A stretch of DNA of 64,000 bases from a bacterium (GTDB lineage: Bacteria; Patescibacteriota; Patescibacteriia; UBA10025): NCBI GenBank assembly GCA_021815445.1, contig JAKAGM010000001.1, forward strand, positions 299,527 to 363,526. The letters are read 5' to 3'. Position 1 is the first letter of the stretch; the number at the start of each line of letters is the position of its first letter. The notes under the pieces are model-generated. The model saw nothing but the letters and a program-made list of their open reading frames with translations. It did no database searches and was not told the DNA's origin. This document shows positions 34,232-59,153 of the stretch, piece by piece. The translations under genes were made by a program, and so were the position numbers.

Positions 34232-34282
34232 AAAATCACATGGTACTTCACACTATGCAATATTTCTGCAGATAAATCAATA

Positions 34283-42676: not shown

Positions 42677-42710
42677 TAATACTACTATCGGCTCAAAACT
42701 AAAAAACACT

Positions 42711-43427: not shown

Positions 43428-44481
43428 CCTAAACATTCAGATCGGTGATAAACGGATCAGCTATCATGATGAGGTTTTTGTTATTGCCGAGGCAGGGGTA
43501 AATCATAACGGACGTCTTAATCTGGCATTGAAGCTTGTCGACGCCGCTGCGCAAGCCGGTGCTCATGCGGTAAAATTTCAGACTTTCAAAGCCCACCAGG
43601 TTGTGGTAAAAAAAACGCCGATGGCTGAGTATCAAAAAAAGAACATTGCACGTAAACAAAGCCAACTGGCTATGTTAAAAAAAGTTGAATTACAAGAAGC
43701 ATTCTACGACAAAATAATTAAGCACTGCAAAAGAAGGAAAATTATTTTTCTTTCCACACCGCACGGCGGATTTGAGAGCATTGATTTTCTTCATTCCCTC
43801 GACGTGCCTGCGTATAAATTTGGCTCAGGAGATTTGAATAACACGCCTGTGCTCCAATACGCTGCGCGATTCGGAAAACCCATGATACTCGGTACCGGAA
43901 TGTCCACACTGCAAGAGGTAAAAAACGCAATCGCGGTCATCAGAAAAACCGGAAACAATAAAATAATCGTATTGCATGCAACGACCAATTACCCATGCCC
44001 TCCCCAAGAAGTCAACTTACAATCAATGGTAACAATGATGCACGCTGTACGTTGCCTCGTGGGCTATTCTGACCATACGTTAGGGATTGAGACGTCATCA
44101 GCTGCTGTCGCACTAAAGGCATGCATGATCGAGAAACACTTCACGTTAAACAAAAAATTGCCCGGTCCGGATCATAAATGTTCAGCTGAACCGAAGGAGC
44201 TTCAAACTTTAATAGACCGCATACGATACATTCACACGATATTGGGTTCACCAGTTAAGCAGCCGAACCCTAGCGAACTGAGAATGTTAAAGACTGTTCG
44301 AAAAAGCATTGTCACGTTATCTGAAATAAAAAAAGATGAGTTTTTTACACCAAAAAACTTAGGGATTAAGAGGCCTGGGACGGGTCTGGATCCAAAATAT
44401 TATTACAGGATCATCGGCAAAAAAGCATTACAGAACATTCGCCCAGATGTTCTGCTGACAAAAAAACATTATGCAGAGTAA
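43408..44481 (+). CDS. neuB: Nonulosonic acid synthase (NeuB/LegI family, C-terminal SAF domain)
   Basis: 357 aa. VIAEAGVNHNG...AGAHAVKFQTFKA is the NeuB TIM-barrel signature. SAF-like C-terminus. Confidence 0.9.
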   Translation: MPTRQDNLNIQIGDKRISYHDEVFVIAEAGVNHNGRLNLALKLVDAAAQAGAHAVKFQTFKAHQVVVKKTPMAEYQKKNIARKQSQLAMLKKVELQEAFYDKIIKHCKRRKIIFLSTPHGGFESIDFLHSLDVPAYKFGSGDLNNTPVLQYAARFGKPMILGTGMSTLQEVKNAIAVIRKTGNNKIIVLHATTNYPCPPQEVNLQSMVTMMHAVRCLVGYSDHTLGIETSSAAVALKACMIEKHFTLNKKLPGPDHKCSAEPKELQTLIDRIRYIHTILGSPVKQPNPSELRMLKTVRKSIVTLSEIKKDEFFTPKNLGIKRPGTGLDPKYYYRIIGKKALQNIRPDVLLTKKHYAE

Positions 44482-45628
44482 AAAGAAAAAAGTAGCATAC
44501 ATTACCGGTAATCGCGCCGATTTCGGATTAATGACACCGGTATTGCTGGCGATGAGGAAAAGCAAAAAGTTGTCACTTACGGTATATGCAACCGGCATGC
44601 ATCTCATGCCGGAATTTGGGCGCACTCTGAAAGAAGTAAAAAAGATATTTCCTGACGTGAAAGTGATCAGCGCCATTTTCAAATCAGACGGCAATAAAGG
44701 GATGGCAAGTTTTTCCTCAGCATACATTAAACGTCTGGTGGAGATGTTTACCAAAGACCGACCGGACTTTGTTATTACGTTGGGTGATCGAGTTGAGATG
44801 CTCTGTACGGCGCTTACCTGTCTTTACATGCATATCCCGAGCGGTCAGCTGCACGGCGGCGAAAAGACTTCCACAGTTGATGAAATTGCGCGCCATACAA
44901 TTACCAAACTTTCCAATCTGCATTTCCCGGCAACGCGTGTATCAGCCCAGAGAATCGAAAAAATGGGCGAAGAAAAGTGGCGCATACACATAGTTGGCGC
45001 CCCTGCGCTTGATATGATATTACACGGCAATTTGCCGAGCAAAAGGGAGGTTTACCGGTTTCTCGATATCAGGCCGTCGCTTCCATATATCCTAGTTACC
45101 CAGCATCCCGTTAGCCAAGAATGGACTGAATCCGGGAGACAAATGAGAGAAACGCTGCGCGCCGTCAAACACTTCGGCATACCTGTTGTAGTTACATACC
45201 CCAACGCAGATGCCGGTGGAAGAGTAATGATAAGGGAAATTAATAAAGAGGAGGGAAACTCATTATTCAGGATCAAGCCGAGCATCCCTTATGCATATTT
45301 CCTGGCAATTGAAAAATATGCGGCAGTCTGGGTTGGGAACAGCAGCGGGGCAATGATTGAGTCATCCTCTTTCCATACTCCGGTCGTCAATGTGGGCGAC
45401 CGTCAAAAAGGCAGAGAACGAGGTTTGAATGTTATTGACAGCCCTCACATACATACACGAATAGAAAAAGCCATCCGGAAATCACTGTCTGACAAAAAAT
45501 ATCGTAAACGACTTCAAAAGATTAAGAACCCGTGGGGTGACGGAAAAACTGGGATGAGGGTCGTAAAAATTCTAGAAAAAACTGATTTCAATACACAATT
45601 GCTCAACAAGCATTTAACTTATGACTAA
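44471..45628 (+). CDS. neuC: Hydrolysing UDP/GDP-N-acetylhexosamine 2-epimerase (NeuC/LegG-like)
   Basis: 385 aa. VAYITGNRADFGLMTPVL ... HGGE ... HPVSQEW ... VGNSSG matches the NeuC-type hydrolysing 2-epimerase pattern. Confidence 0.85.
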   Translation: MQSKKKKVAYITGNRADFGLMTPVLLAMRKSKKLSLTVYATGMHLMPEFGRTLKEVKKIFPDVKVISAIFKSDGNKGMASFSSAYIKRLVEMFTKDRPDFVITLGDRVEMLCTALTCLYMHIPSGQLHGGEKTSTVDEIARHTITKLSNLHFPATRVSAQRIEKMGEEKWRIHIVGAPALDMILHGNLPSKREVYRFLDIRPSLPYILVTQHPVSQEWTESGRQMRETLRAVKHFGIPVVVTYPNADAGGRVMIREINKEEGNSLFRIKPSIPYAYFLAIEKYAAVWVGNSSGAMIESSSFHTPVVNVGDRQKGRERGLNVIDSPHIHTRIEKAIRKSLSDKKYRKRLQKIKNPWGDGKTGMRVVKILEKTDFNTQLLNKHLTYD

Positions 45629-46226
45629 AAAAGTAATCATCGTAGGTGCCGGAGAAAATGGATATGTTATAGTGAACATATTGAAAAGAAAGTACAGTAT
45701 CGCCGGTTTTCTTGATGATAGAAAGAGAGGAAAACACATTCTTGGTAAAATTAATCAGTTCTCTAAATATAAAAAAAGTCATCTTTTTTTTGTAAATATT
45801 GGGAATAACAAGGTGAGAAAGAATATTTATCTGCTGATGAAGTCCGCCGGAGCAAAATTCGTTAATGCGATTCATGTCTTGTCTTTTGTAGAAAAAACTG
45901 CTAAAATTGGTGAAAATGTTTTTATCGGAGCTATGACCTACATAAATGTAAACGCCTCCATTGGCGACAATTCTTTCATTAATAACGGCTGCATTATCGA
46001 GCACGATAATGAGATTTCCGCGCACACACATGTTGCACCTGGCGTGATAACGGGAGGACGTGTCGTCATTGGTACGGGTTCGTTTATAGGACTTGGCAGC
46101 CGCATTAATGACCACACTAAGATAGGAAATAATGTAACCATCGGATCTGGTTCAGTCGTCATCGGCCCGATTGCGAGCAATACCACTGCGGTGGGTATTC
46201 CCGCTCATATAATTAAAAAATTATGA
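45621..46226 (+). CDS. Left-handed beta-helix sugar N-acetyltransferase (NeuD/PglD/LegH-like)
   Basis: 201 aa. N-terminal Rossmann-like IIVGAGENG and C-terminal hexapeptide repeats (IGDNSFINNGCIIEHDN..., IGTGSFIGLGSRIN...). Confidence 0.8.
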   Translation: MTKKVIIVGAGENGYVIVNILKRKYSIAGFLDDRKRGKHILGKINQFSKYKKSHLFFVNIGNNKVRKNIYLLMKSAGAKFVNAIHVLSFVEKTAKIGENVFIGAMTYINVNASIGDNSFINNGCIIEHDNEISAHTHVAPGVITGGRVVIGTGSFIGLGSRINDHTKIGNNVTIGSGSVVIGPIASNTTAVGIPAHIIKKL

Positions 46227-47335
46227 AAAATTTTCCCGTTGCACGACCTTTTATTGATCGTAAAGACATTGATGGAGTAGTCGGCGTGCTGAAGTCCGGA
46301 TTGCTTTCTTTCGGGCCCAAGTATCTCCAATTTGAAAAACAAATTGCGAAATATACTGGGACCAGGTACGCATGCGCCGTTTCGAATGGCACCTGCGGCC
46401 TGCATTTGGCGGTCAAAGCTCTTAACCTTCACCCGGGCGATGAAGTAATCACGTCACCATTTTCCTTCATATCCTCTTCAAACTGCCTTCTCTTTGAGGG
46501 TGTCGTGCCAAGATTTATTGATATCCAGGAAAATACGTTTAACATGGATCCGAAATATCTCGATAAAAGCGTAACAAAAAAAACCAAAGCAATCCTCGCG
46601 GTACATATATTCGGACAGTCAGCTGATATGACTGAAATTATGGCATTTGCTAGACGGCATCATTTGCCGGTCATCGAGGATTCTTGTGAAAGCCTGGGAT
46701 CAAGATATATGGGAAAAATGACCGGGTCTATAGGTGATGTAGGTGTGTACGCCTTTTATCCCAATAAACAAATGACTACGGGCGAAGGAGGGATTGTTGT
46801 AACAAAATCAAAAAAAATTCGTGACATTTGCGTGAGTTTAAGAAACCAGGGCCGGAACAACCGCAATGATTGGCTGGTTCATGAAAGAGTCGGATACAAT
46901 TACCGGATGGATGAAATGAGCGCATCGTTAGGAATCACCCAACTTCACAAATTAAATTGGATGATAAATGAAAAAAGGAAGATCGCTTCATGGTACTCAT
47001 CTGAATTGGATGGACATAGATCGATCCGCGTACCGCGCATCGGCGTTAATCGAACGCATTCTTGGTTTGTGTACGTGATCCGTGTTACTAACGGCTCTCG
47101 CGATAAGATTATAAAAAAACTTGAACGAGAAAATATTTTCACGAAACCCTATCTTCCGGTGATACATCTCCAGCCATTTATGAAACAAATGTTCCATTAC
47201 AAAAAGGGGGCTTTTCCGATCGCGGAAAAAATCTCTTCTCAAACACTCGCGCTCCCCTTTTACATCGGGTTGACACGAGAAGATGTCGCATATATATCAC
47301 GTAAATTAATCTCTGTGATTAAGAATTATGATTAA
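46223..47335 (+). CDS. DegT/DnrJ/EryC1-type PLP aminotransferase (LegC/PglE-like)
   Basis: 370 aa. GPKYLQFEKQIAKYTGTRYACAVSNGTCGLHLA and a conserved lysine region. Typical nucleotide-sugar 4-aminotransferase. Confidence 0.9.
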   Translation: MKNFPVARPFIDRKDIDGVVGVLKSGLLSFGPKYLQFEKQIAKYTGTRYACAVSNGTCGLHLAVKALNLHPGDEVITSPFSFISSSNCLLFEGVVPRFIDIQENTFNMDPKYLDKSVTKKTKAILAVHIFGQSADMTEIMAFARRHHLPVIEDSCESLGSRYMGKMTGSIGDVGVYAFYPNKQMTTGEGGIVVTKSKKIRDICVSLRNQGRNNRNDWLVHERVGYNYRMDEMSASLGITQLHKLNWMINEKRKIASWYSSELDGHRSIRVPRIGVNRTHSWFVYVIRVTNGSRDKIIKKLERENIFTKPYLPVIHLQPFMKQMFHYKKGAFPIAEKISSQTLALPFYIGLTREDVAYISRKLISVIKNYD

Positions 47336-48323
47336 ATATTTTCAGAATAAAATAATACTGGTAACTGGAGGGACTGGTTCAATAGGCTCCGAGCTGGTCA
47401 AACAGCTTATTACATATAAGCCGAAACAGTTACGTATTTTCTCGCGCGACGAAAGCAAACAGTACTACCTTATGGAGCAAATTGACCATCCGAGTAACGT
47501 CAGGTTTTTTATCGGCGATGTGAGGGACCAGGAACGTCTGGATTTGGCATTCCAAAATGTAGACGTGGTATTCCACGCCGCAGCGATGAAGCACGTTCCC
47601 TTGTGCGAGTACAACCCATTTGAAGCGGTAAAAACCAATATCGTAGGATCTCAAAATGTCATTAACGCCGCTCTAAAACATAATGTTGACAAGGTTGTCG
47701 CGATTTCAACCGATAAAGCCGCAAACCCGAGTAATGTCATGGGAACCTCAAAGCTCATGATGGAAAAACTTATAATAAATGCAAATTTTTACCGCGGCTG
47801 GGCTAGAACAAAATTTTCTTGCGTACGCTTCGGGAATGTCGCCTGGGCAAGAGGGTCAGTTCTTCCGCTATGGAAAAAACAGGCAGAAAGAGGGAATTCC
47901 ATTAAAATTACCAACCATGACATGACACGTTTTTTTATGTCTATTCCTCAGGCCAGGGATTTAGTTTTAAAAACTGCAAGCTTGGCATACGGCGGGGAGA
48001 TTTTCATTTTAAAGATGTCATCAATAAGAATCATCGATTTGGCAAAGATTTTTGTCAAAAAATATTATCCCGATAGGAAAATAAGAATCGTCAAAACAGG
48101 AAATCGACCCGGAGAAAAGATGCACGAAGATTTGTACGTTCCCAATATTACACCGAAGGCAATATTTGAAAATGACGAAATTCTCATAATAATTCCCGAG
48201 CTTGAAATATATGACCTTAAACAGCCCGAAAGAGAGTACAAAGGCTTTAGGAAAAAGCTCAGTTATGCGGATTATTGTTCCGATAAATCAATCAATGTAA
48301 GTAGGGTGAGAAATGTTATATAA
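47328..48323 (+). CDS. UDP/GDP-GlcNAc 4,6-dehydratase, short FlaA1/PseB/LegB type
   Basis: 331 aa. IILVTGGTGSIGSELVKQL...AAMKHVPLCEYNP...TDKAANPSNVMGTSK is the short-form polysaccharide biosynthesis (CapD-like) dehydratase pattern. Confidence 0.85.
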   Translation: MIKYFQNKIILVTGGTGSIGSELVKQLITYKPKQLRIFSRDESKQYYLMEQIDHPSNVRFFIGDVRDQERLDLAFQNVDVVFHAAAMKHVPLCEYNPFEAVKTNIVGSQNVINAALKHNVDKVVAISTDKAANPSNVMGTSKLMMEKLIINANFYRGWARTKFSCVRFGNVAWARGSVLPLWKKQAERGNSIKITNHDMTRFFMSIPQARDLVLKTASLAYGGEIFILKMSSIRIIDLAKIFVKKYYPDRKIRIVKTGNRPGEKMHEDLYVPNITPKAIFENDEILIIIPELEIYDLKQPEREYKGFRKKLSYADYCSDKSINVSRVRNVI

Positions 48324-48339
48324 ATTTAATTATCGGTAA

Positions 48340-49209
48340 ATGAAAAAAGGGGTCAACATTAGGATAATCCCGAGGCTTGACATTAAGGGTCCCAACCTGG
48401 TCAAAGGAATTCATTTGGAAGGTTTACGCGTATTGGGTAAACCGGAGGATTTCGCCAAGCGTTACTATGAAATGGGCGCCGACGAACTTCTCTATGTCGA
48501 CGTCGTCGCAAGTTTGTACAACAGAAACAGTTTGCACGACATCATCTCTAGAACTGCTAAGGAGATATTCATACCCATGACAGTTGGCGGAGGCATACGT
48601 ACAATTGATGACATAAAATCTGTATTGCGGGCGGGTGCGGACAAGGTTGCCCTAAATACCGCAGCAATAAAGAATCCTGAGATCATACGGGAAGCCGCAA
48701 CCATCTTTGGCTCGTCAACAGTCACCATCGCAATAGAAGCGATAAAACAGCCAAACGGCGACTACCTCGCCTACACTGATAACGGTCGTGAATTCACTGG
48801 GGTGGAAGTGCTCGACTGGGCAAAAAAAATTGAATCACTCGGGGCCGGAGAAATCTTGCTCACATCGATAGACAGGGAGGGTACGGGATTGGGTTTCGAT
48901 AAAGAATTAACTAAGCGCATTGCTGCTGCGGTTTCGATACCTGTAGTAGCATGCGGAGGTCCCGGAAAACTTGAGCATATTTATGAGGTTATACATGAAT
49001 CACAGGCTGATGCGGTGGCGATAGCCTCGATGCTGCACTATGATCTCATTGGCCAGGGTAACGCCTCAGCGAAGTATGAAGGCGAAGGAAATACGGAATT
49101 CCTAAAGAAAAAAACAGGCACATTCGGCAAAATTACCAACACGAACATTTCCGCTATAAAAAAATATTTATTTGAACACGACATTCCTTGTCGGTACAGA
49201 AATGAATAA
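48340..49209 (+). CDS. HisF-like cyclase subunit (WbuY-type, glycan amidotransfer)
   Basis: 289 aa. IIPRLDIKGPNLVKG...ADELLYVDV...PMTVGGGIRT is the imidazole-glycerol-phosphate synthase HisF fold. Located in the glycan locus rather than a his operon. Confidence 0.85.
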   Translation: MKKGVNIRIIPRLDIKGPNLVKGIHLEGLRVLGKPEDFAKRYYEMGADELLYVDVVASLYNRNSLHDIISRTAKEIFIPMTVGGGIRTIDDIKSVLRAGADKVALNTAAIKNPEIIREAATIFGSSTVTIAIEAIKQPNGDYLAYTDNGREFTGVEVLDWAKKIESLGAGEILLTSIDREGTGLGFDKELTKRIAAAVSIPVVACGGPGKLEHIYEVIHESQADAVAIASMLHYDLIGQGNASAKYEGEGNTEFLKKKTGTFGKITNTNISAIKKYLFEHDIPCRYRNE

Positions 49210-49885
49210 AACAAACCCAAGGATAGCAATTATTGATTATAAATTGAGCAACCTTTTCAGCGTCAAACATGCATGCGAGTTCGTCGGCATGAATGCTGAA
49301 ATAACATCCTCGCGCGATGATGTTTTAAATGCAGACGGTGCGATTCTGCCAGGTGTAGGGGCGTTCGGCGATGCAATGAAAAATTTAGAAAATTTAAACC
49401 TTGTCAGCGCAATTAAAGAGTTCGTCAAATCCGGAAAACCGCTCATGGGCATTTGCCTCGGACTTCAGTTGCTTTTTTCTGAAAGCGAAGAATTTGGCCC
49501 TCATAAAGGCCTCGGCATTATCCCCGGTAAAGTTGTAAAATTTCCTTCCATAAATTCGGATGGGCGCGTCATAAAGGTTCCTCAAATAGGGTGGAATACA
49601 ATTCATACGCCGGACTCAGATCCTCTCAAATGGCAGAATACTCCCCTCTTAGGAATTGCCGACGGCGAATTTATGTATTTTGTTCATTCCTACTATATTA
49701 TCCCTGACAATACGAGGGATGTGCTGACGACTACGACATACGACACAATCACGTATGCGTCAAGCATACTGCATGATAATGTCATTGCGTTCCAATTCCA
49801 TCCCGAAAAAAGCGGGATAGAGGGCGTCAAAATATATAAGAACTGGGCCTTACACCTAAAAAAATTAAATAACCCGAATATATGA
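49172..49885 (+). CDS. HisH-like class I glutamine amidotransferase (WbuX-type)
   Basis: RIAIIDYKLSNLFSV ... GICLGLQLL (catalytic Cys) ... QFHPEKS. An alternative start at 49202 (MNKTNP) avoids the overlap with the HisF-like gene. Confidence 0.85.
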   Translation: MNTTFLVGTEMNKTNPRIAIIDYKLSNLFSVKHACEFVGMNAEITSSRDDVLNADGAILPGVGAFGDAMKNLENLNLVSAIKEFVKSGKPLMGICLGLQLLFSESEEFGPHKGLGIIPGKVVKFPSINSDGRVIKVPQIGWNTIHTPDSDPLKWQNTPLLGIADGEFMYFVHSYYIIPDNTRDVLTTTTYDTITYASSILHDNVIAFQFHPEKSGIEGVKIYKNWALHLKKLNNPNI

Positions 49886-51102
49886 CTTTAAAGACCATGT
49901 ATGATCTCCCAGAAAAAGTGATTTTTTGCAAACGGTGTGTTATTTCCAATCAACGACCGGCTTCAACCCCGGAGTTCAGGCACACAAAAACTGCAAAAAA
50001 AGTTACGATTAATATAGATTCACAGGGAGTGTGTGACGCATGCCGGCAGGCTGAGGTTAAGGAAAAAATTGACTGGAGCAAACGTGAAAAGGAACTCGTC
50101 GTTTTGCTTGATAAATACCGTAAAAATGACGGAAGTTATGATTGCATCGTGCCCGGAAGTGGCGGCAAGGACAGCGCCTTTCAGGCGCACACTTTAAAAT
50201 ACAAATATGGCATGCATCCATTAACGGTAACTTGGCCTCCGATCCTCTACACTGACTATGGTTATCAAAATTTTAAAAATTGGATTGAAATTGGCGGTTT
50301 TGATAATATCACATTCAAGCAAAACGGACGGGTGATGAAACTGCTTACGAGACTGGCAATCGAAAACCTTTTTCACCCTTTTCAGACATTCATTCTTGGG
50401 CAGAAAAATCTCGGACCAAAAATCGCTTTAAAGTACAAAATTCCCCTGATTTTTTACGGAGAAAATGAAGCGGAATACGGAAACCCAATTGCCGAAAACG
50501 CAACATCCCTTCGCGATAAATCTTACTATGCAATGGAAAATCTTGACGAAGTATACCTCGGGGGCGTTTCGATTCCGGAACTTATAAAAAAATATAACAT
50601 CCAGCTAGCGGACCTTATGGCTTTTCTCCCCCCACGGGCAGAAGATTTAGACTCCTCAAAAATTGAAGTGCACTATTTAGGATATTACCTCAAATGGACG
50701 CCGCAAGAAGTTTATTATTACGCGGTTGAAAATACCGGTTTTAAGGCACGCCCTTTTCGCACACAGGGCACCTATAGCAAATATAATAGCATCGACGATA
50801 AAATCGACGATCTGCATTATTACACGACTCACATCAAATTCGGGATTGGTCGGGCGACATACGACGCTTCGCAGGAAATAAGGAATAGACACCTAACACG
50901 CGAAGACGGCAAAGCGCTCGTCAAACGTTTTGACGGCGAATTTCCAGATCGATATTTTGACGAAATAATGAACTATATAGGCATGGAGCCGAAACATTTC
51001 TTCGAATTATGTGATAAATTCAGACCGTCTCATTTGTGGAAAAAAATTGATGGTGAGTGGAAATTGCGTCACACTGTGAATAGTGACGGCACAGACGATT
51101 AA
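49882..51102 (+). CDS. N-acetyl sugar amidotransferase, PP-loop ATPase (PseA/WbuZ/WbpG-like)
   Basis: 406 aa. N-terminal Cys cluster (CKRC...C..C) and PP-loop VPGSGGKDS. Family partner of the HisH/HisF-like pair in acetamidino-sugar formation. Confidence 0.8.
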   Translation: MTLKTMYDLPEKVIFCKRCVISNQRPASTPEFRHTKTAKKVTINIDSQGVCDACRQAEVKEKIDWSKREKELVVLLDKYRKNDGSYDCIVPGSGGKDSAFQAHTLKYKYGMHPLTVTWPPILYTDYGYQNFKNWIEIGGFDNITFKQNGRVMKLLTRLAIENLFHPFQTFILGQKNLGPKIALKYKIPLIFYGENEAEYGNPIAENATSLRDKSYYAMENLDEVYLGGVSIPELIKKYNIQLADLMAFLPPRAEDLDSSKIEVHYLGYYLKWTPQEVYYYAVENTGFKARPFRTQGTYSKYNSIDDKIDDLHYYTTHIKFGIGRATYDASQEIRNRHLTREDGKALVKRFDGEFPDRYFDEIMNYIGMEPKHFFELCDKFRPSHLWKKIDGEWKLRHTVNSDGTDD

Positions 51103-52093
51103 GCAAATAATACTCACCCATATGAAAACAGCAGTCATTATCGGTGCAGGACAGCTTGGAAGCAGACATCTTCAAGCGCTTAAATCAGTGACAACTGCCC
51201 TTGAGATTTATGTTATCGATCCTTCAGATAAGTCCCTCAAAGTCGCGAAAGAACGATACGATACTATTGACTCCAAACAACCTAAGCAGCGAGTGACATT
51301 TGCTAATTCTTTACCGGACTCTTTGGATATAGAAATAGCAATTGTAGCTACAAATGCGGATGTTCGAAGAACTGTTGTTGAAAAAATGCTGCGTACAGCC
51401 AAAGTAAGACATCTCATATTGGAAAAACTACTGTTCAGCAAACCGGAAGATTATCCTGCGGTAGCAAAGCTGCTAAGAGAAAAAAACGTTGCGTGCTGGG
51501 TAAATTGCAGCATGAGAACTATGCCTTTTTATCAAACCCTTCAAAAACACTTTAAAGACCTACCGCTCACATACACGGTGACAGGCAGTCAATTCGGGTT
51601 AGTGACTAACGCAATTCATTACCTTGACCATGTGGCTTTCCTTACTGGGTGTCCTGACTTTACTATTTCGACTCAATATTTAAATCCCCGACCCATTGAG
51701 AGTAAACGACCAGGATTTTTGGAACTTAACGGTACGCTGCTTGCCGAGTACCAAAATGGCAGTATCGCTGCGCTTACATGCTACTCTGATGGCAATGCCC
51801 CGGTTGTAGTAGAGATCTGCAACCAAGACTACCGCTGTATATCACGGGAATCGGAGAAACTAGCATGGATTTCGAACCAAAAACAAAACTGGCAGTGGAG
51901 CGAGGTACCCTCAAACTTACCCTACCAAAGCGCAATGACTACCGATGTGGTTGAAGAATTGTTAAAAAAGGGGACGTGTTCCTTGACTCCTTACGCTGAA
52001 TCGATGTCCATCCACCTTAACCTGTTGCCAAAATTACAGGAATTCCTCGATAGAAAATCCACCAAGCAATTTGATCATTATCCATTTACGTAA
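51083..52093 (+). CDS. NAD(P)-binding oxidoreductase (Gfo/Idh/MocA-like)
   Basis: KTAVIIGAGQLGSRHLQAL Rossmann motif. An alternative start at 51122 avoids a 20-nt overlap. Confidence 0.55.
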   Translation: MTAQTIKQIILTHMKTAVIIGAGQLGSRHLQALKSVTTALEIYVIDPSDKSLKVAKERYDTIDSKQPKQRVTFANSLPDSLDIEIAIVATNADVRRTVVEKMLRTAKVRHLILEKLLFSKPEDYPAVAKLLREKNVACWVNCSMRTMPFYQTLQKHFKDLPLTYTVTGSQFGLVTNAIHYLDHVAFLTGCPDFTISTQYLNPRPIESKRPGFLELNGTLLAEYQNGSIAALTCYSDGNAPVVVEICNQDYRCISRESEKLAWISNQKQNWQWSEVPSNLPYQSAMTTDVVEELLKKGTCSLTPYAESMSIHLNLLPKLQEFLDRKSTKQFDHYPFT

Positions 52094-53077
52094 ATGAACA
52101 GCGCATCCCATCCAAAAGTTCTACTCATAGGTACCGGTCCAATAGGTATCGAATACGCAAAAATACTCCAGGCGTTGCGGAAAGACTTTTTAGTTGTGGG
52201 TCGTAGTGAATCATCGTGTAAAAATTTTTTCAGTCAAACAGGAGTTACTGCCCAAATGGGGGGAATACAGGAATGGTTCAGCGTGCACCCGAATATACAT
52301 AGTGACCAGATAGAAAAGGTTATCATCGCTGTCAGCGAAAATGAACTCGGCATTGTGACGCTTACCTGCCTGGAACATGGATGTAATAACATCCTGGTAG
52401 AGAAGCCGGGGGGATTAAATATTGAGGAAATTAAAAAAGTAGAAAGTACATCCAAAAAAAAACATGCTCTCGTTTTTGTTGGGTATAACCGTCGTCAGTA
52501 TGCTTCAGTGAAAATGTGCAAAAAATTGCTTGCAGACGACGGAGGCGTGACGTCTTTTAATTTTGAATTTACTGAATGGGGACACGTCATCCAAGATCTA
52601 AAAAAAGCTGCAGGCGTAAAAGAACAATGGTTTCTGCATAATTCTACGCATGTGATTGACCTTGCATTTTTTCTGGGCGGAAATCCAAAAAAAATAGTGA
52701 CATTTACAAAAGGTTCGTTACCTTGGCATCCTTCGGGGTCGATCTTTGCGGGTGCTGGTGAGTCTTCTTCAGGGGCATTATTCTCTTATCAAGCAAATTG
52801 GTCGGCGCCTGGTCGGTGGGGCGTAGAGGTATTAACATCAAAACATAGATTCATTTTACGTCCTTTGGAAAAACTTCAGATGCAAAAAATCGGATCCGTC
52901 GAGATTTCGGAAGTCCCGTTGGAAGATCGGTACGACAAGGAGTTTAAACCCGGTTTTTACGAGCAAACCAATGCTTTTCTGACTGAAAACTACGACCTTC
53001 TGTGTTCAATTGAAGAGCAAAAGAGAAATTGTGCCACTTATGAAAAAATCTCAGGCAACACCCACAGTTTGGTATGA
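52094..53077 (+). CDS. NAD(P)-binding oxidoreductase (Gfo/Idh/MocA-like), second copy
   Basis: 327 aa. KVLLIGTGPIGIEYAKIL Rossmann motif. Same architecture as the preceding gene but a distinct sequence. Confidence 0.55.
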   Translation: MNSASHPKVLLIGTGPIGIEYAKILQALRKDFLVVGRSESSCKNFFSQTGVTAQMGGIQEWFSVHPNIHSDQIEKVIIAVSENELGIVTLTCLEHGCNNILVEKPGGLNIEEIKKVESTSKKKHALVFVGYNRRQYASVKMCKKLLADDGGVTSFNFEFTEWGHVIQDLKKAAGVKEQWFLHNSTHVIDLAFFLGGNPKKIVTFTKGSLPWHPSGSIFAGAGESSSGALFSYQANWSAPGRWGVEVLTSKHRFILRPLEKLQMQKIGSVEISEVPLEDRYDKEFKPGFYEQTNAFLTENYDLLCSIEEQKRNCATYEKISGNTHSLV

Positions 53078-53829
53078 TGGCAGCTGATCTTGGTTGTGGA
53101 GTAAATAAAACGAGGGATACCGTGGGCATCGACCGATTCCCGCTTGAGGGTGTCGATGTTGTTGTCGACCTCAATAAATTCCCATACCCCTTTGCCGATA
53201 ACTCGTTTGACGTCTTCTACCTCAATGACATCATCGAACATTTACCCGACACCATTGGAGTTATGGAGGAATTATACAGATTATGTAAACCAAACGCTCA
53301 CATCTACATACGAGTTATAAATTGGAACAGTAAATTAAACGCCGAGGACCCGACGCATGTAAAAGCATTCACTGAACATACATTTGATTTCTTTGGAAAA
53401 TACGCATTACGTTCCTACTATAGTAAGGCGAGATTTGAAGTTGTATCCTGTGAGTACCAATTCAACGCAAAAGTGGAAAAATACATAAAAAACCGTCGCC
53501 TCATGAAATTCCTAGGTACTTATTTGAATAACGTTTTAGAGGGTCTCAATTTTGACCTGCGGTGTGTAAAAAATACAACATCCCCCAGCGAACATGAACC
53601 TCGTCAGGATCGGGATATTTTTTCGCTTATCAGGTGTCCGCATTGCATCGGTGATAAAGAAACAAAGGATAACTCCAGTTTAACTATTTACAACACCGAC
53701 TGGCTTCTGTGCAGCAACCCTCATTGCAAAAGAAAATACCCGATAGTAAATGGGACCCCCCTGCTCACCTTAAAGGATGGTAATAAACGGATATCCGTAC
53801 AGCCGGAATCACTTGCAACAATAACCTAA
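53074..53829 (+). CDS. Class I SAM-dependent methyltransferase with C-terminal Trm112-like zinc ribbon
   Basis: DLGCGVNKT motif I, DVFYLNDIIEHL motif II-III. C-terminal CPHC...CSNPHCKRKYPIVNGTPLL resembles the Trm112 zinc-ribbon (YPI.dGIP.L) element. Confidence 0.8.
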   Translation: MMAADLGCGVNKTRDTVGIDRFPLEGVDVVVDLNKFPYPFADNSFDVFYLNDIIEHLPDTIGVMEELYRLCKPNAHIYIRVINWNSKLNAEDPTHVKAFTEHTFDFFGKYALRSYYSKARFEVVSCEYQFNAKVEKYIKNRRLMKFLGTYLNNVLEGLNFDLRCVKNTTSPSEHEPRQDRDIFSLIRCPHCIGDKETKDNSSLTIYNTDWLLCSNPHCKRKYPIVNGTPLLTLKDGNKRISVQPESLATIT

Positions 53830-53839
53830 TGTATCGTAC

Positions 53840-54790
53840 ATGACCCAATCGATTTTCAGAAAATATTATTCTTCCGAATCGCTTGTTGATAAATTCTCGA
53901 GTGATCAATCATCGGGCGTCGATGTGATTATTCCCATTATTCACACAAATGAACTGTGGGAAAGCAATTTGCATTCTATGTACCGGGAAATTCCGATTCG
54001 GCGTTTGCTTATCGGTGACGGCGGATGCAAGGATAATTCCATTGAAGTGGTAAAGAAGTTTCCGCGAGTAAAAATTTTTGACCATAGGTCATTCGTTTCA
54101 CTCGGATATAGCATCAAAAAGCTAATCGAGCAAGTCGAGTCCGAATGGTTTATTTACCTTCACTCAGATGTTTATATTCCCGCCGGTTGGTTTATCGAAA
54201 TGTCAAAGAATAAAAAAAACTACGACTGGTTTGAGTGTAACCAGCGCATAACGGCGCTCATTGAATATCCCCTTGATTACACGGGGATCCATCGACCGTT
54301 TTCGGGAAGCCAGATGGGGAAAAAAGAAATATTTTCGTCCGTCCTGGGTAAGATAGATGATGACTTTCTTTATCGAAATGAGGATATAATTTTTTCAGAG
54401 TTAATCCAAAAAGAGGGGTACCGATACGGCAGGGTTAAGTCAACTTTTCACTACCATCAATTAATGCACAAAGAGGGACCATGGGAGCGAAAAATATCCT
54501 CTGTCGACTTTATCGTGGAAAAGTCAAAAGAGGAGGAGTTTAGAGAGTCAAATATGCAAATCAGGGGGATCATTAAATATCTCGATCCGACTGACGCTCA
54601 CGCAGATATGATTCAAATTCATATTGCAAAGTTGTTGTCGAAACATCTTCTCCAAAAAAAGAAATTTGTGCGATGGGTTGAGCAAACCAATCCGGCATGG
54701 AAAAAACTCATCAAGCGAAGGTTAAAAAAGATTGCTTTGCTTAATGCCGTTAAACGCGCATATGCATTAATTCCCGGCTGGTTGAGGTAG
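53840..54790 (+). CDS. Putative GT-A fold glycosyltransferase
   Basis: 316 aa. VDVIIPIIHTNE ... IGDGGCKDNS ... YLHSDV resemble GT2-like nucleotide-binding and DxD elements. Weak assignment. Confidence 0.4.
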   Translation: MTQSIFRKYYSSESLVDKFSSDQSSGVDVIIPIIHTNELWESNLHSMYREIPIRRLLIGDGGCKDNSIEVVKKFPRVKIFDHRSFVSLGYSIKKLIEQVESEWFIYLHSDVYIPAGWFIEMSKNKKNYDWFECNQRITALIEYPLDYTGIHRPFSGSQMGKKEIFSSVLGKIDDDFLYRNEDIIFSELIQKEGYRYGRVKSTFHYHQLMHKEGPWERKISSVDFIVEKSKEEEFRESNMQIRGIIKYLDPTDAHADMIQIHIAKLLSKHLLQKKKFVRWVEQTNPAWKKLIKRRLKKIALLNAVKRAYALIPGWLR

Positions 54791-54801
54791 CCGACACAAG
54801 T

Positions 54802-56244
54802 ATGAAAAAAAAAGTTTTAGTGATTATTCATTCAAACACCTATTTTAATGAGTTGTTTAAATTAGCCAGAATGCTTTTACACTCCGAGGCGTATGAACCG
54901 ATTTTGTTATTTCCCGTAAACTACTCCAGAAAAGACGATAATGTTGCGACTTGCTTGCATAATGGATTAACTTGTCTCGATGAATTAGGTACTCAGCTGA
55001 AACACGCAAGTGTTAAAAATACCGGCGTAACAGCGTCAACGTTTCCTTTACATAATGTGACTGCCTCTTTGCGTACCTGGGTGCGAAACATGCTCAAAAT
55101 CATCCAAATTGACTTCATTTTCGGGACTTTGTACATGATTCTATTTCTGAAAAGACGAATCTCATTCGCTCAAGAGGTCATTAAAAAGCACAATTGTGAA
55201 CTCATAGTCGTGGGTGGCGATCTTGTACATTATGATTCTTCCGCATTTATCCGCGCGGGGCATGAATTGGGCGTTAAGTCCGTCATCATACCTTGCACGA
55301 TGTCAAACGCCCTTGAGATGGCGGAATCATACTACGGTGACAAGCGCTATTCGATGTCAACTCTTGGTAACTGGCTTGCGGGTAAGCTGATGCCTGAGTG
55401 GACCTATATACATAAGGGAAAAAAAATGCTTCGGACTCCGGCCGACCGTGCATTTGCTATGTATTTTCTCCGCCTCTCCCCCCCATTTCCGTGGATAAAT
55501 AACAGCTCCTTTGCAGATGCCATTGCGGCAGAGAGCGAGATGATGAGGCTGTATTACACTCGAGAAGGGATACCAAACGCTCAGATAACAATTACAGGAT
55601 CCCCCTCTCATGATATTTTGGCGAGTGCCGAAAAAAAGCTTGATACCGAGAAACATACTATTTTCCGGGAGTTGAATCTCAACCCGGGAAAACCGGTCAT
55701 TTTATCCCCCCTGGTGCCAAATCAACACTACCTCGCCGGGGGAAGACCTGAATGCGAATTTCGCACTTATGAGGAACTAATCGAATTCTGGGTACATGCC
55801 ATTTCGAAGATGAGCTCGTCTCATAATATTTTAATAAATCTCCACCCTTCAATGAAAATTGATGATTATAGGAAATTTGAGAAAAATGGAGTTACAATTT
55901 CCGACGCTGACATAACATCACTCATACCTTACTGTGATTTCTTTGTAGCAAGCGTTTCTTCAGTCATTCGGTGGGCCATTGCGTGCGGCAAGCCTGTCCT
56001 TAATTATGACATATATAAATTCCGATACACTGATTACCTCTACCAACCAGCGGTGATCACTACTGAGAAAAAAGGGGATTTTCTGAATTTCTTGGAAAGG
56101 TTGAGCCATGACGCCGCATATTTACGCGAGTTATCGCTGAAGCAAAAAATTTTTTCGAGGAAATGGGGTATCCTTGATGGCAAAGCGCACGTCAGAATCA
56201 TCCAGTTGTTTGATTTGCTCACCAAATCGGGAGTACATGCCTAG
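54802..56244 (+). CDS. Large GT-B-like transferase, tandem paralog 1 (Capsule_synth/KpsS-KpsC-like candidate)
   Basis: 480 aa. N-terminus KVLVIIHSNTYFNELFKLARML. C-terminal FFVASVSSVIRWAIACGKPVLNYDIYKF resembles the ...TINSgvGlEAL..GKPV..G...Y motif of beta-Kdo/sialyl-type Capsule_synth transferases. Confidence 0.45.
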   Translation: MKKKVLVIIHSNTYFNELFKLARMLLHSEAYEPILLFPVNYSRKDDNVATCLHNGLTCLDELGTQLKHASVKNTGVTASTFPLHNVTASLRTWVRNMLKIIQIDFIFGTLYMILFLKRRISFAQEVIKKHNCELIVVGGDLVHYDSSAFIRAGHELGVKSVIIPCTMSNALEMAESYYGDKRYSMSTLGNWLAGKLMPEWTYIHKGKKMLRTPADRAFAMYFLRLSPPFPWINNSSFADAIAAESEMMRLYYTREGIPNAQITITGSPSHDILASAEKKLDTEKHTIFRELNLNPGKPVILSPLVPNQHYLAGGRPECEFRTYEELIEFWVHAISKMSSSHNILINLHPSMKIDDYRKFEKNGVTISDADITSLIPYCDFFVASVSSVIRWAIACGKPVLNYDIYKFRYTDYLYQPAVITTEKKGDFLNFLERLSHDAAYLRELSLKQKIFSRKWGILDGKAHVRIIQLFDLLTKSGVHA

Positions 56245-57595
56245 ATTCATACTCTTTGTCGTAAATACAAACACATATTTCTCCGTATTATTCAATTTAG
56301 CCAGGCGGTTTAAGGCGTCTTCTTTCGCCATCCATATCGTGTTTGATGGAGGCTACCCTACCCTTCAACACGATATCGAACGCTGCCGAACAGCAAGACT
56401 AGATTTTTCCATTAGAAACGAGTACGGTTTTTCGAATAATTATTTCATCCGCGTCCTTCAGTTAATCTTATCGAGGGGGTCCCTTGGCAAATTCGTTAAA
56501 TCCTATCTCCAGACGCTCTATGATATCCGATCAATTAAGCAGCTACTGCAACAAAAACAGCCGGATTTTATCGCCCTGGCGGCTGATAACGTCGCATATT
56601 CCACCGCGTTATATATTAAGCTCGGACATACCCTCGGCATAAAAACAGTCGTTTTTCCGCAGTGGTTAGCTAATGCGAAAGAGCCCGTGGAATTTATCAT
56701 TAATGACGATGATTATGAAGTGAAATCTGTTTACTCAAAACTTATTGCCAGGTTCTTTCCCAAGTGGACTTTTTCTGTGAATGGAAAAACATTGCTTCGT
56801 CTGCCTGCTCAAAAAATACTTCTCAAGGAGCTATTTGGCATCTCGCCCAAACTCCCATGGATACTGCATAGCGGAGATGCCGATCGTATCGCTTTAGAAA
56901 GCCGGGCGATGAAAGCATTTTCCAGGAGAATTGGCTTGCCGGATGAACAAACCATTGTAACAGGTTCATTGGAGCTAGACATGTTGTGCGATATAAAGAA
57001 ACACTCTGCAATTTTGCGCCATAAACTCTACGCTAGATACGGATTTGCAAAATCACGCCCCCTTGTGATTACCGCCCTGCCGCCTGATTTCTACACACAT
57101 ACCGGAGGGAGGCCTCAAAGCGAATTTAAAAATTACCGAGAGCTTTTGAATAAGTGGATTGATGCTTTCAAAGTCAATAACCCGGCGAATTTACTGGTTT
57201 GCGTTCATCCCTCTGTAGATAAAAAAAACTTTTCACTGGCTGAGACTGCATACATGAAGCTCTGCAGGGAAGATTTAATTAACGTTTTACCACTTGGGGA
57301 CTTGTTCGTAGCAAGTGTTTCCGCTACTATTCAGTGGGCAATCTGCGTAAATATCCCGACTATAAACTATGACGTTTACCAATATGACTACGATGAATAT
57401 AAGCATGTTGCGGGCGTTATTACTGTTCGCGATTACCACAATTTTAAAACGACGCTGAAACATCTGACACAGCGGCCGGCTGAAATCGAGGAGCTGAGGA
57501 AAAAGCAAAGCAAAATCTCAGACATGTGGGGAACTCTCGATGGTCATTCATTCGACCGTATACAATCATTAATCGATTCTCTCGATAAAGCATGA
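56237..57595 (+). CDS. Large GT-B-like transferase, tandem paralog 2
   Basis: Aligns with the preceding gene at both ends (FILFVVNTNTYFSVLFNLARRF; LFVASVSATIQWAICVNIPTINYDVYQYDY; C-terminal WGTLDGHSFDRIQSLID vs WGILDGKAHVRIIQLFD). Start at ATG 56237 (8-nt overlap) preferred over ORF-track 56174. Confidence 0.45.
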   Translation: MPRFILFVVNTNTYFSVLFNLARRFKASSFAIHIVFDGGYPTLQHDIERCRTARLDFSIRNEYGFSNNYFIRVLQLILSRGSLGKFVKSYLQTLYDIRSIKQLLQQKQPDFIALAADNVAYSTALYIKLGHTLGIKTVVFPQWLANAKEPVEFIINDDDYEVKSVYSKLIARFFPKWTFSVNGKTLLRLPAQKILLKELFGISPKLPWILHSGDADRIALESRAMKAFSRRIGLPDEQTIVTGSLELDMLCDIKKHSAILRHKLYARYGFAKSRPLVITALPPDFYTHTGGRPQSEFKNYRELLNKWIDAFKVNNPANLLVCVHPSVDKKNFSLAETAYMKLCREDLINVLPLGDLFVASVSATIQWAICVNIPTINYDVYQYDYDEYKHVAGVITVRDYHNFKTTLKHLTQRPAEIEELRKKQSKISDMWGTLDGHSFDRIQSLIDSLDKA

Positions 57596-58473
57596 TCTCC
57601 AAAATCGCAAAATTTCTTAAAGAGTTGGCGCTTCTGGTCGAATCAGTTGTTAAAATTCTTTTTTTCTCAAATTTTCAACCCCCGATCAGGAACCTGCGCA
57701 TAGACTCTTCCAAGCCCTCGGTTATACTTGGAAACGGCCCGTCCCTGACTACAACGCTGTCTGACTACCCAGCATTTTTTGTTAATAAAACAAATATTTG
57801 CGTGAATGATTTTGCTGATTCAGACTATTTCGAAAAAATTAAACCCACCATATACGTTTTTACCGACCCGACATACTGGATGACATCAGCGTCGGCGAGA
57901 ATTCAAAACCAACTCGAGCTGTACAAGCAAAAGATGGTAAATAACGTTACCTGGAAAATGACGATTATCTTGCCTTTCGCGGCAAAAAAATGGAATTATT
58001 TCATTGATGTCCCAAAAAAAAATACTAATATATCGATTTGCTACATTAATACGACCGAGGTCAATTGTTTCAAGCGTCTGCGCTTTTATTTGTATAGTAG
58101 AAACTTAGCTATTCCACCAATGCAAAATGTCATTGTTGCAGCTCTCTTTATATCCGTAAACGTGGGAATAAAAACGGCCTACCTTGTCGGGGCTGATCAT
58201 TCATGGCATGAAAGCTTTTTTGTAGGAAATGATAATATCCTCTATTTAAAAAACAAGCGTTTCCAAGATAGAGAAGAGGCGACGTATTCTCCGTTTTATC
58301 AGGATCCCGGTGAAACACTTCCCTATCGAATGGATAATCTACTTTTCGCCCTGGCGAGAATGTTTCAAGGCTACCGCGAACTTGAAGAGTATGCGAAACT
58401 ACATCATGCGAAAATATTTAATGCAAGCACGAAGTCATATATTGACGCCTTTGAAAGATATAAAATATCATAA
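57592..58473 (+). CDS. GT42/DUF115 (MAF_flag10)-like CMP-nonulosonate transferase
   Basis: VILGNGPSL ... ICVNDFADSDYFEK ... VAALFISVNVGIKTAYLVGADHSW parallels Campylobacter Cst-II/Maf motifs IIAGNGPSL ... FRCNQFYFED ... CAVAIALGYKEIYLSGIDFY. ATGA overlap with the upstream gene. Confidence 0.65.
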   Translation: MISKIAKFLKELALLVESVVKILFFSNFQPPIRNLRIDSSKPSVILGNGPSLTTTLSDYPAFFVNKTNICVNDFADSDYFEKIKPTIYVFTDPTYWMTSASARIQNQLELYKQKMVNNVTWKMTIILPFAAKKWNYFIDVPKKNTNISICYINTTEVNCFKRLRFYLYSRNLAIPPMQNVIVAALFISVNVGIKTAYLVGADHSWHESFFVGNDNILYLKNKRFQDREEATYSPFYQDPGETLPYRMDNLLFALARMFQGYRELEEYAKLHHAKIFNASTKSYIDAFERYKIS

Positions 58474-58481
58474 TACCAACC

Positions 58482-59153
58482 ATGAACAACATCTTGCTCA
58501 ACCCACTGACGATATATATAAAGAGGCTGCTGGTTGCATTAAGCTTGCAGACGGTTAATTATAAAAAACACCTGTCCATTGGCAATATGAGTGTGGTAAA
58601 AAATTGCCATTTTGGAACATACAATACTATATATGAGAATGCACGCCTCATCGACGTTACCGTTGGCGATTTTACCTACTTTTCCAGCAATTCGTGGGTT
58701 AGCAACGCCGTTATTGGTAAATTCTGCTCAATCGGTCCCGGAGTCATGTGCGGATTAGGCATACATCCAACTTCATTCGTATCGACCCATCCAGCTTTTT
58801 ACTCGACTCAAAAACAAGCTCAAGTAACATTTGCAACCAAGAATCTTTTTGATGAACATAAAATGACAAACATCGGCAATGATGTCTGGATTGGTGCTCG
58901 TGCAATCATACTTGACGGGGTCACAATCGGTGACGGAGCAATCATTGCCGCAGGTGCAGTAGTGACAAAAAATGTTGCTCCCTATGCGATAATGGGTGGG
59001 GTTCCTGCGACTATCATTAAATACCGATTTGGAGACGACGAAATTAAGTCGTTATTGCGACTACAGTGGTGGAATAGAGACCCTCAATGGTTACAACTTC
59101 ACTCAGAACAGTTCACAAAAGTATCAGAATTCCTCAGGTCTAGGTCCGGATAA
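58482..59153 (+). CDS. Hexapeptide-repeat O-acetyltransferase (XAT/CatB-Vat-like)
   Basis: 223 aa. VWIGARAIILDGVTIGDGAIIAAGAVVTKNVAPYAIMGGVPATIIKYRF is the left-handed beta-helix xenobiotic acetyltransferase C-terminus. Confidence 0.85.
   Translation: MNNILLNPLTIYIKRLLVALSLQTVNYKKHLSIGNMSVVKNCHFGTYNTIYENARLIDVTVGDFTYFSSNSWVSNAVIGKFCSIGPGVMCGLGIHPTSFVSTHPAFYSTQKQAQVTFATKNLFDEHKMTNIGNDVWIGARAIILDGVTIGDGAIIAAGAVVTKNVAPYAIMGGVPATIIKYRFGDDEIKSLLRLQWWNRDPQWLQLHSEQFTKVSEFLRSRSG

Follow-up and report, generated by a model that had tools for sequence, protein, structure and literature searches.

What do two adjacent genes of about 470 codons do near the end of a sialic-acid-like sugar operon in an ultra-small bacterium? 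The genes in question, here called P1 and P2, lie on contig JAKAGM010000001.1 of a Patescibacteriota assembly (GCA_021815445.1), within a window of 64,000 nucleotides (positions 299,527 to 363,526 of the contig) that was analysed as a whole and to which all coordinates below refer. The question touches a wider one, as knowledge of the enzymes that attach pseudaminic acid (Pse) and legionaminic acid (Leg) has been called ‘scarce’ (PMC5420450) and as regards transferases of Leg to cell surfaces there were ‘no reports’ (PMC7439481). An initial annotation had read the pair as tandem-duplicated, retaining transferases of the KpsS/KpsC/LpsZ type in a nonulosonate locus. We report that P1 and P2 are members of a large family that has no name, have a predicted GT-B glycosyltransferase fold and are probably CMP-nonulosonate-dependent transferases of a different kind.

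An apparently ancient gene pair from a large unnamed family

P1 (54802..56244, plus strand) encodes 480 aa and P2 (56237..57595, plus strand) 452 aa. The open reading frame (ORF) listed for P2 spans 56174..57595 on the plus strand and opens at a TTG at 56174, yet an ATG at 56237 with GGGAG ahead of it is likely the real start. With this start, the first 8 nt of P2 overlap the 3′ end of P1, and the lengths of 480 and 452 aa were also obtained by independent gene calling on the 877-kb source contig. BLASTP aligned the two proteins with 30% identity over 476 columns (E = 2e-77), far beyond chance, making them full-length paralogues. The strings on which the initial annotation had based the kinship are present both at the N-terminus (IHSNTYFNELFKLAR and VNTNTYFSVLFNLAR) and at the C-terminus (FFVASVSSVIRWAIACGKPVLNYDIYKF and LFVASVSATIQWAICVNIPTINYDVYQYDY), and the ORF list together with the alignment confirmed two adjacent paralogous genes within these limits.

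The description as a tandem duplication holds for adjacency and paralogy, with a qualification as to age. Because each protein is closer to a relative in another genome (68% and 57% identity) than to its neighbour (30%), P1 and P2 are, judged by sequence comparison, old, anciently diverged paralogues. The tandem arrangement is kept in a related Patescibacteria metagenome-assembled genome (MAG). Divergence is uneven along the proteins, with 34% identity in the C-terminal domain, 26% in the N-terminal domain and 9% in an insert within the latter. The insert of P2 is unrelated to that of P1, which contains a strongly hydrophobic helix (residues 98-116); hydropathy analysis revealed no such helix in P2.

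A database search returned 123 relatives, essentially all without a name, and when 1.84 billion cluster representatives were searched exhaustively, 4,642 matched at E ≤ 1e-3 and 1,461 at E ≤ 1e-30. Neither Pfam nor NCBIfam holds a model for them, and the members in Azospirillum, Rhizobium and Legionella carry the RefSeq label ‘hypothetical protein’. Given that relatives are many and nearly all unnamed or ‘hypothetical’, we consider this a large family without a name. Our literature search found no description of it, of the remotely related family TIGR04396 (see below) or of nonulosonates in Patescibacteria. Such a fold and the general chemistry are well known; the family itself is not, having no Pfam or NCBIfam model and no paper that we found.

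A GT-B fold and remote relatives from nonulosonate loci

An AlphaFold2 model of P1, built on a 61-sequence alignment, had high confidence (pLDDT 93, pTM 0.90) and revealed two Rossmann-like domains, with a disordered loop at residues 76-86 and a helical insert at 88-129. The order of its secondary-structure elements fits the GT-B superfamily, which is marked by two such domains with an interdomain cleft, His and Ser nucleotide elements in the C-terminal domain and a C-terminal helix that crosses back. A Foldseek search against the PDB returned 359 matches at E ≤ 0.001, the best 50 of which were all GT-B enzymes, headed by UDP-GlcNAc 2-epimerase (1f6d; E = 3e-12, TMq 0.51) and including TagF (3l7j; 7e-11); KpsC, WbbB and sialyltransferases were absent from these 50. 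Direct searches of the P1, P2 and P0035 sequences against PDB chains gave nothing usable, and the family profile matched an epimerase (8sxv; 4e-4) and, at E = 0.14, TarL among PDB sequences.

Scanning members one by one (61 in total: P1, P2 and 59 relatives) showed where the family's remote kinship lies. TIGR04396 was matched by 38 of the 61 (best 7e-10) and the BFO_1060 family (NF046086, BFO_1060_trans), weakly, by 35 (best 5e-11), so that these two appear as the most consistent remote relatives, ahead of Epimerase_2 (14 members) and Glyphos_transf (10). The scores are far under the family cut-offs (BFO_1060: P1 26.8 and P2 38.2 bits against 200; TIGR04396: P1 17 bits against 125, P2 no match) and cover the C-terminal domain only; P1 and P2 are for this reason remote relatives of the BFO_1060 family rather than members. 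The ‘hypothetical’ genes of the Rhizobium and Azospirillum loci described below were also scanned, and no true BFO_1060 or TIGR04396 member was found among them.

Both of these relatives come from nonulosonate loci. In Tannerella, Tanf_01245 and TFUB4_00887 are TagB/GT-B-like proteins of ~445 aa with HP and D/E-D/E-G motifs, whose knock-outs lose the terminal Pse or Leg derivative of the O-glycan; TFUB4_00887 is the Leg-type enzyme of strain UB4, and BFO_1060 its homologue in strain 92A2 (PMC5420450). P1 and P2 resemble these transferases in length (452-480 aa), in their GT-B/TagB-like fold, in having an HP and an acidic motif of the Tannerella type (likened by description; PMC5420450) and in the location of their genes beside a CMP-Pse/Leg pathway with a methyltransferase nearby. 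In contrast, the Tannerella enzymes cap a protein O-glycan, whereas the P1/P2 locus has an ATP-binding cassette (ABC) exporter for a polymer. TIGR04396 shares the nonulosonate setting, as a ‘surface carbohydrate biosynthesis protein’ (its product name) is encoded directly beside neuABC in Herbaspirillum (PMC6679464), and is set apart from P1 and P2 by the low scores given above.

Conserved residues

Residue conservation was counted in the 61-member alignment or, where so stated, in 93 copies from genomic loci. The most prominent element is H348-P349 (HP), invariant in the alignment and with its histidine present in 92/93 locus copies; in a profile alignment to the epimerase, H348 falls on the epimerase's own HP histidine. 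Following a strand of the N-terminal domain, positions 139-141 have the family consensus E-D-N (G-D-L in P1, A-D-N in P2), position 140 being D or E in 88%. S386-x-T388 is conserved at a helix start as a Ser/Thr helix cap, and further conserved residues are E172, R211, P230-W231, E244-S245, G266, D271, D379, N401, D403, D459 and R465. P2 keeps all conserved positions save K397 (I in P2), C378 and C395. Throughout the family, conservation is higher in the C-terminal than in the N-terminal domain, which fits a common donor class combined with different acceptors.

We tried the K/I difference at position 397 as a marker of two clean subfamilies and dropped it: the split is only partly coherent (the nearest neighbour is also of the I type for 16/29 I-type copies), the substitution arose on more than one occasion, and the pattern used in the genome scan itself contained K at this position.

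The arrangement recalls bacterial sialyltransferases of the GT-B type, in which an acidic pair in the N-terminal domain is combined with HP and a Ser/Thr cap in the C-terminal domain (as cited in PMC5420450 and PMC7439481). Like GT38, GT52 and GT80 enzymes, P1 and P2 have two Rossmann domains, a C-domain HP and an acidic D/E pair that follows a strand of the N-domain, and a CMP-sugar donor would be expected; unlike them, the family lacks Pfam matches to these groups, has none of them in the best 50 Foldseek matches and mostly lacks the K/R of the cytosine-binding (K/R)XHP motif. The HP and acidic motifs of sialyltransferases were reportedly defined by Freiberger et al. 2007. Parts of the same layout are also found in TagF and in epimerases. 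TagF has its catalytic histidine (H444) in the N-terminal domain; of the N-domain histidines of the P1/P2 family, H154 is present in 48/93 copies and H204 in 49/93, and none is invariant.

The residues speak against the KpsS/KpsC/LpsZ assignment. Retaining ulosonate transferases (GT99, GT107 and GT140) have an absolutely conserved QXXXD in the C-terminal domain, with Asp as the nucleophile and Gln binding the carboxylate, along with a (K/R)XHP motif and a GT-B fold that is strongly reduced and includes a helical subdomain (PMC12887879). The P1/P2 family shares with KpsC, KpsS, KpsS1, WbbB and KrkA an HP-type nucleotide motif and the occurrence in ulosonate-related loci, and departs from them in lacking the QXXXD nucleophile, the reduced N-terminal domain and any Capsule_synth match (PMC12887879). 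No Asp column with Gln at -4 is conserved, P1 contains no QxxxD at all, and neither do 38/93 locus copies. HP is invariant here, with K/R two positions before it in 23/93 copies; KrkA, too, has no K/R at this place (PMC12887879). The Capsule_synth model (PF05159) gave no match to P1 or P2 at E ≤ 1 and none at E ≤ 0.01 in the 61 members. The resemblance noted in the initial annotation is that of the generic nucleotide-binding region of this GT-B clade. What stands of that proposal is a glycosyltransferase fold in a nonulosonate locus; the named family and the retaining mechanism do not.

Association with nonulosonate genes across phyla

P1 and P2 lie in the 3′ part of an operon of ~20 kb on the plus strand. 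Its 42594..51102 segment, recognized with NCBIfam models, encodes a CMP-nonulosonate synthetase, NeuB, NeuC, a NeuD/PglD acetyltransferase, a PseC/LegC-type aminotransferase, a PseB-type dehydratase and a WbuZ/WbuY/WbuX acetamidino module. It is preceded by the Wzm permease and Wzt ATPase genes (40567..42676, plus strand; NCBIfam) of an ABC exporter for lipid-linked glycans. As predicted from these gene assignments, the locus comprises a complete Leg/Pse-type 5-acetamidino nonulosonate pathway and an ABC exporter for a lipid-linked glycan.

Scanning a single genome for each species, we found 61 loci with family members, spread over Patescibacteria, Chloroflexota, Planctomycetota, Acidobacteriota, Myxococcota, Bacteroidota, Verrucomicrobiota, Alpha- and Betaproteobacteria, Leptospiraceae and Coxiellaceae. 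Their context was scored by tblastn within 10 kb of the family copy, using the window's own proteins as probes. At least one of CMP-synthetase, NeuB, NeuC and WbuX was present in 38/61 loci, and NeuB or the CMP-synthetase in 25/38 loci of ≥19 kb; by inference, NeuB should occur in well under 1% of random 20-kb stretches. The second count is an underestimate, because the window's NeuB gene itself lies 11.4 kb from P1 and the syntenic locus of the related MAG scored negative for that reason. Wzt was detected in 25 and Wzm in 17 of the 61.

Family copies are also accompanied by a particular GT2-like gene, homologous to the one upstream of P1, in 25-26 of the 61 loci. The median gap to the family copy is 77 bp, and 24/25 lie within 2 kb; this adjacency across phyla suggests a functional GT-A and GT-B pair. 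MocA2 homologues were found in 25/61 loci and methyltransferase homologues in 10, usually within 2 kb of the family copy.

Multiple copies per locus are common. A hidden Markov model (HMM) of the family identified 106 copies in 63 loci, with at least two in 32/63 and up to six; such numbers (2-6 per locus) are typical of linkage-specific transferases. In two-copy loci, the co-resident copies are 20-45% identical and each is closer to a copy in another genome (27/27). Such pairs are old and maintained, since their members are less alike than either is to foreign copies, as expected for differing specificities. A contig of a Hyphomicrobiales MAG (JAKFYI010000022.1) carries five family copies within 12 kb and, at a second locus, two more.

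Annotated isolates gave a closer view of the setting. A plasmid of Rhizobium sp. WL3 (NZ_CP042825, 605548-639068; locus L063) encodes a LegC-NeuC-NeuB-...-WbuX/WbuZ/HisH pathway together with an ABC exporter, acyltransferases and a methyltransferase. Next come four consecutive ‘hypothetical’ genes of 450-510 aa, three of which are family members, and then a second NeuB/NeuC/CMP-synthetase set. The locus thereby has two complete nonulosonate sets (two NeuB, two NeuC, two CMP-synthetases) in addition to KpsF. The fourth ‘hypothetical’ gene, FVA81_RS03360, matched nothing that was tested. On a plasmid of Azospirillum lipoferum 4B (locus L062), NeuB and NeuC have a family member between them.

With the Coxiellaceae copy as a query, we found a 473-aa ‘hypothetical protein’ of Legionella pneumophila, with records that include ‘serogroup 13’. 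A lipopolysaccharide (LPS)-type locus of L. pneumophila (GCA_026190735.1, 967922-989343; locus L065) holds two members, one (HMM E = 6e-87) translationally coupled to and overlapping a methyltransferase gene, the other (474 aa, E = 1e-68) adjoining a radical-SAM gene. The same locus has a CMP-nonulosonate synthetase-type gene, MocA and short-chain dehydrogenase/reductase (SDR) genes, an MBOAT gene, two GT2 genes and insertion sequence elements; MocA2 homologues are present in the Rhizobium, Azospirillum and Legionella loci alike. Legionella O-antigens are polymers of legionaminic acid derivatives, and in serogroup 1 loci a ‘conserved unknown’ ORF 13-A/13-a adjoins the radical-SAM ORF 13-c (PMC3766260). 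ORF 13-A/13-a may belong to the same family, and a link to ORF 6 and ORF 7 of serogroup 1 was also considered.

CMP-nonulosonate transfer weighed against other activities

Taking fold, motifs and genomic association together, we infer that P1 and P2 are rather probably GT-B glycosyltransferases that use CMP-nonulosonates. Most likely they would differ in acceptor specificity and build a polymer that is exported by the ABC transporter.

Several observations weigh against this assignment. The top structural matches take UDP or CDP substrates instead of CMP-sugars, and sialyltransferases are missing from the best 50. Of the 93 copies, 23 have the K/R of the cytosine-binding (K/R)XHP motif, P1 having N and P2 having C in its place. 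About one third of the full-length loci have no NeuB or CMP-synthetase within 10 kb, and the similarity to the BFO_1060 and TIGR04396 families is confined to the C-terminal domain at scores far below their cut-offs. In the L. pneumophila locus, a gene matching the alpha-2,8-polysialyltransferase family of Pfam (PF07388) could be the polymerase there. Finally, Bacillus subtilis SpsB, a related TagB-domain protein, is not needed for Leg transfer (PMC7439481).

Some of these points would suit GT-B transferases with an ordinary NDP-sugar donor that build a backbone or primer, to which another enzyme (here the DUF115/Maf-like protein encoded next to P2, in other loci different ones) would add the nonulosonate. 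Of the alternatives this one keeps the most weight, and we still regard it as improbable. The absent K/R in both P1 and P2, the UDP-binding nature of the closest folds, the window's own Maf-like candidate and the other sugar-nucleotide genes in the window (an RmlA/RmlB-like pair at 27.7-30.3 kb and an SDR gene at 39.6 kb) would all agree with it. It is countered by the distribution of the DUF115 gene, which is present in 2/63 loci only, both from Patescibacteria: the other 61 lack it and yet have nonulosonate genes. DUF115 cannot, given this absence, be the general nonulosonate transferase of family loci, which also weakens the variant in which it is the sole such transferase and P1 and P2 do something else. 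In addition, the nearest named relatives are both nonulosonate-locus families, and many loci, such as that of Rhizobium, have no dedicated sugar pathway besides the nonulosonate one.

We consider it unlikely that P1 and P2 are TagF/TagB-like polyol-phosphate transferases, which would use CDP-glycerol or CDP-ribitol to make a teichoic-acid-like polymer. P1 exceeds the Glyphos_transf (PF04464) cut-off by a narrow margin and in its C-terminal half only (23.2 against 22.1 bits), ten of the 61 members match this model, TagF structures are among the top Foldseek matches, and the profile reached TarL, if at E = 0.14. A bacterium of the candidate phyla radiation (CPR) is moreover expected to have a Gram-positive-like wall. 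Against this stand the strong linkage to nonulosonate genes, the lack in P2 of a Glyphos_transf or any other significant Pfam match, and an hhalign probability of only 7.8%, uninformative in itself, to the TagF-like ORF of the window. Neither the annotation of the Rhizobium and Azospirillum loci (L063 and L062) nor the window genes scanned include a cytidylyltransferase for glycerol-3-phosphate or ribitol-phosphate. The initial annotation had named a confident TagF-like match as evidence against its own reading; the match we found is marginal. Such a match does not really speak against nonulosonate transfer, a TagB-like domain being part of the Tannerella Pse/Leg transferases as well (PMC5420450).

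Little probability attaches to the third alternative, in which P1 and P2 modify nucleotide sugars as epimerases or hydrolases of the UDP-GlcNAc 2-epimerase/NeuC type and are not transferases at all. It draws on the top Foldseek and PDB profile matches (1f6d and 8sxv), on an hhalign probability of 90% to the window's NeuC, with a terminal WG-DG-A--R motif in common, and on Epimerase_2 (PF02350), matched weakly by 14/61 members and by P1 with 14.3 bits, below the gathering score of 30.6. The NeuC similarity is limited to the C-terminal domain, however, and the N-terminal domain has an extra helical insert of ~100 residues. The loci already hold a NeuC, and two to six divergent copies per locus would be unexpected for an epimerase. 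In a comparison by eye with E. coli WecB, the second catalytic Glu of epimerases (HVEAG) seemingly corresponds to P-x-T here. The TagF/TarL and WecB/NeuC groups together represent the closest folds (TMq ~0.5, E of 1e-10 to 1e-12), with the HP histidine and C-terminal WG-DG-A--R in common; they differ from P1 and P2 in sequence (12-14% identity), in the unrelated N-terminal domain and insert, and in genomic context, which for the P1/P2 family is nonulosonate-related with several paralogues per locus.

Membership in the KpsS/KpsC/LpsZ (Capsule_synth, GT107-like) group of retaining CMP-ulosonate transferases, suggested by the HP motif, a Ser-rich phosphate loop and the common ulosonate setting (PMC12887879), is rejected as highly improbable, because QXXXD is not conserved and the fold is a full GT-B rather than one with a reduced N-terminal and a helical subdomain.

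The remainder of the operon and the window

The operon begins with an SDR epimerase gene at 39.6 kb (plus strand) and continues with Wzm, Wzt, the nonulosonate pathway and its acetamidino module, two MocA genes, a methyltransferase gene, the GT2-like gene, P1, P2, the DUF115 gene and a hexapeptide acetyltransferase gene, all on the plus strand. In Wzt (41273-42676, plus strand), ~150 aa extend beyond the ATPase domain, as the nucleotide-binding domain match covers residues 86-316 of the 467-aa ORF. This extension may be a carbohydrate-binding domain for a chain-terminating modification, of which the methyltransferase encoded at 53074-53829 could be the source.

Pfam and NCBIfam models identified two GFO/IDH/MocA oxidoreductases and an S-adenosylmethionine (SAM)-dependent methyltransferase with a Zn-ribbon tail at 51083..53829 (plus strand), likely sugar-tailoring or chain-terminating enzymes. 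The two MocA genes (51083-53077, plus strand) lie between the acetamidino module and the methyltransferase gene, and a possible role of their products is to epimerise the nonulosonate, at C4 or C8 for instance. The GT2-like protein of 316 aa (53840..54790, plus strand) matched Pfam Glycos_transf_2 with 26.2 bits; its best PDB sequence matches were SunS-type S-glycosyltransferases (E ~0.15).

Downstream of P2, a DUF115/MptE-like (Maf-type) protein of 293 aa is encoded at 57592..58473 (plus strand), its start overlapping the P2 stop (ATGA). It scored 25 bits with PF01973, below the cut-off of 34.6; most of its homologues carry PF01973, and >400 homologues are of similar size. Its AlphaFold2 model (pLDDT 96) was closest in Foldseek to the Maf flagellin nonulosonate transferase 5mu5 (1e-6), followed by the GT29 sialyltransferases ST8SiaIII and ST6GalNAc2. 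The motifs GNGPSL, C-x-N-x-F and G-A-D-H-S-W are invariant, and we take them to resemble those of CstII (GT42). The initial designation of this neighbour as GT42-like was thus broadly right as to its sialyltransferase-like fold and its GNGPSL and CxNxF motifs, for which reason the idea of a locus with up to three nonulosonate transferases is a reasonable and plausible one. The gene stands alone in a polysaccharide locus, not in a flagellin locus. The operon ends with a hexapeptide-repeat acetyltransferase of the Vat/CatB-like type (58482..59153, plus strand; Pfam, NCBIfam).

From ~44.8 kb to its end, the window is collinear with the related MAG contig, with 55-90% amino acid identity and 72% DNA identity over 4.7 kb. 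A 353-aa ORF located shortly before the operon in the opposite orientation (37891-38955, minus strand) matched Glyphos_transf with 32.5 bits, and its likeness to TagF is clearer than that of P1 or P2; locus L020 has a weak match to it. Positions 1-31000 hold a MraY-MurD-FtsW-MurG-MurC-MurB cluster, SecA, arginine decarboxylase, an agmatinase-like gene, the type IV pilus genes PilB/PilC/PilM, CTP synthase, the RmlA/RmlB-like pair and AdoHcy hydrolase. This housekeeping content fits a CPR genome, which would measure roughly 0.9 Mb. Two large ORFs on the minus strand (32465-35974 and 60009-61556; 588 and 563 aa) had no Pfam match at 1e-5, and neither had a 515-aa multi-pass membrane protein encoded between GT2 and GT4 genes, which is conserved in the related MAG. 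No tRNA genes were found in the 64-kb window.

A model for P1 and P2 and its implications

In the model we favour, that of CMP-nonulosonate transfer, the C-terminal Rossmann domain would bind the CMP-sugar supplied by the neighbouring pathway, the phosphate would be contacted by His348 (HP motif) and by S386/T388 at the helix N-terminus, and the N-terminal domain, with D140 as candidate base and the variable helical insert, would position the acceptor at the membrane face. P1 and P2 would act at the cytoplasmic face of the membrane on a lipid-linked acceptor, together with the GT2-like partner and, here, the Maf-like enzyme. They probably make two different linkages, since the donor-side domain is more alike between them than the acceptor side. 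One paralogue may start the chain, joining its first nonulosonate to a primer that the GT2-like partner helps to make, and the other may extend it from nonulosonate to nonulosonate, or the linkages made by the two may alternate. The product would be tailored by methyl, acetyl and MocA enzymes, and the finished lipid-linked polymer exported by Wzm/Wzt.

A bolder reading, to which we give tentative credence at best, is that the family represents the missing general class of Leg/Pse transferases and polymerases for ABC-exported poly-nonulosonates, in which old paralogues set the linkages. The CPR bacterium would then be coated with such a polymer, and ‘unknown’ genes of L. pneumophila LPS loci, possibly including ORF 13-A/13-a, would be serogroup-defining transferases.

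Leg and Pse transferases are a recognised gap, for which an unnamed family of >1,000 sequence clusters, extending from the CPR to Legionella, Rhizobium and Azospirillum, offers a concrete and testable candidate; L. pneumophila, Rhizobium sp. WL3 and Azospirillum lipoferum 4B are tractable hosts that carry members. If the assignment is true, it would define a new glycosyltransferase family, supply tools for the chemo-enzymatic synthesis of Leg and Pse glycans and provide markers to predict surface antigens, Legionella serogroups included. It would also mean that an ultra-small CPR bacterium devotes ~20 kb to a sialic-acid-like surface polymer.

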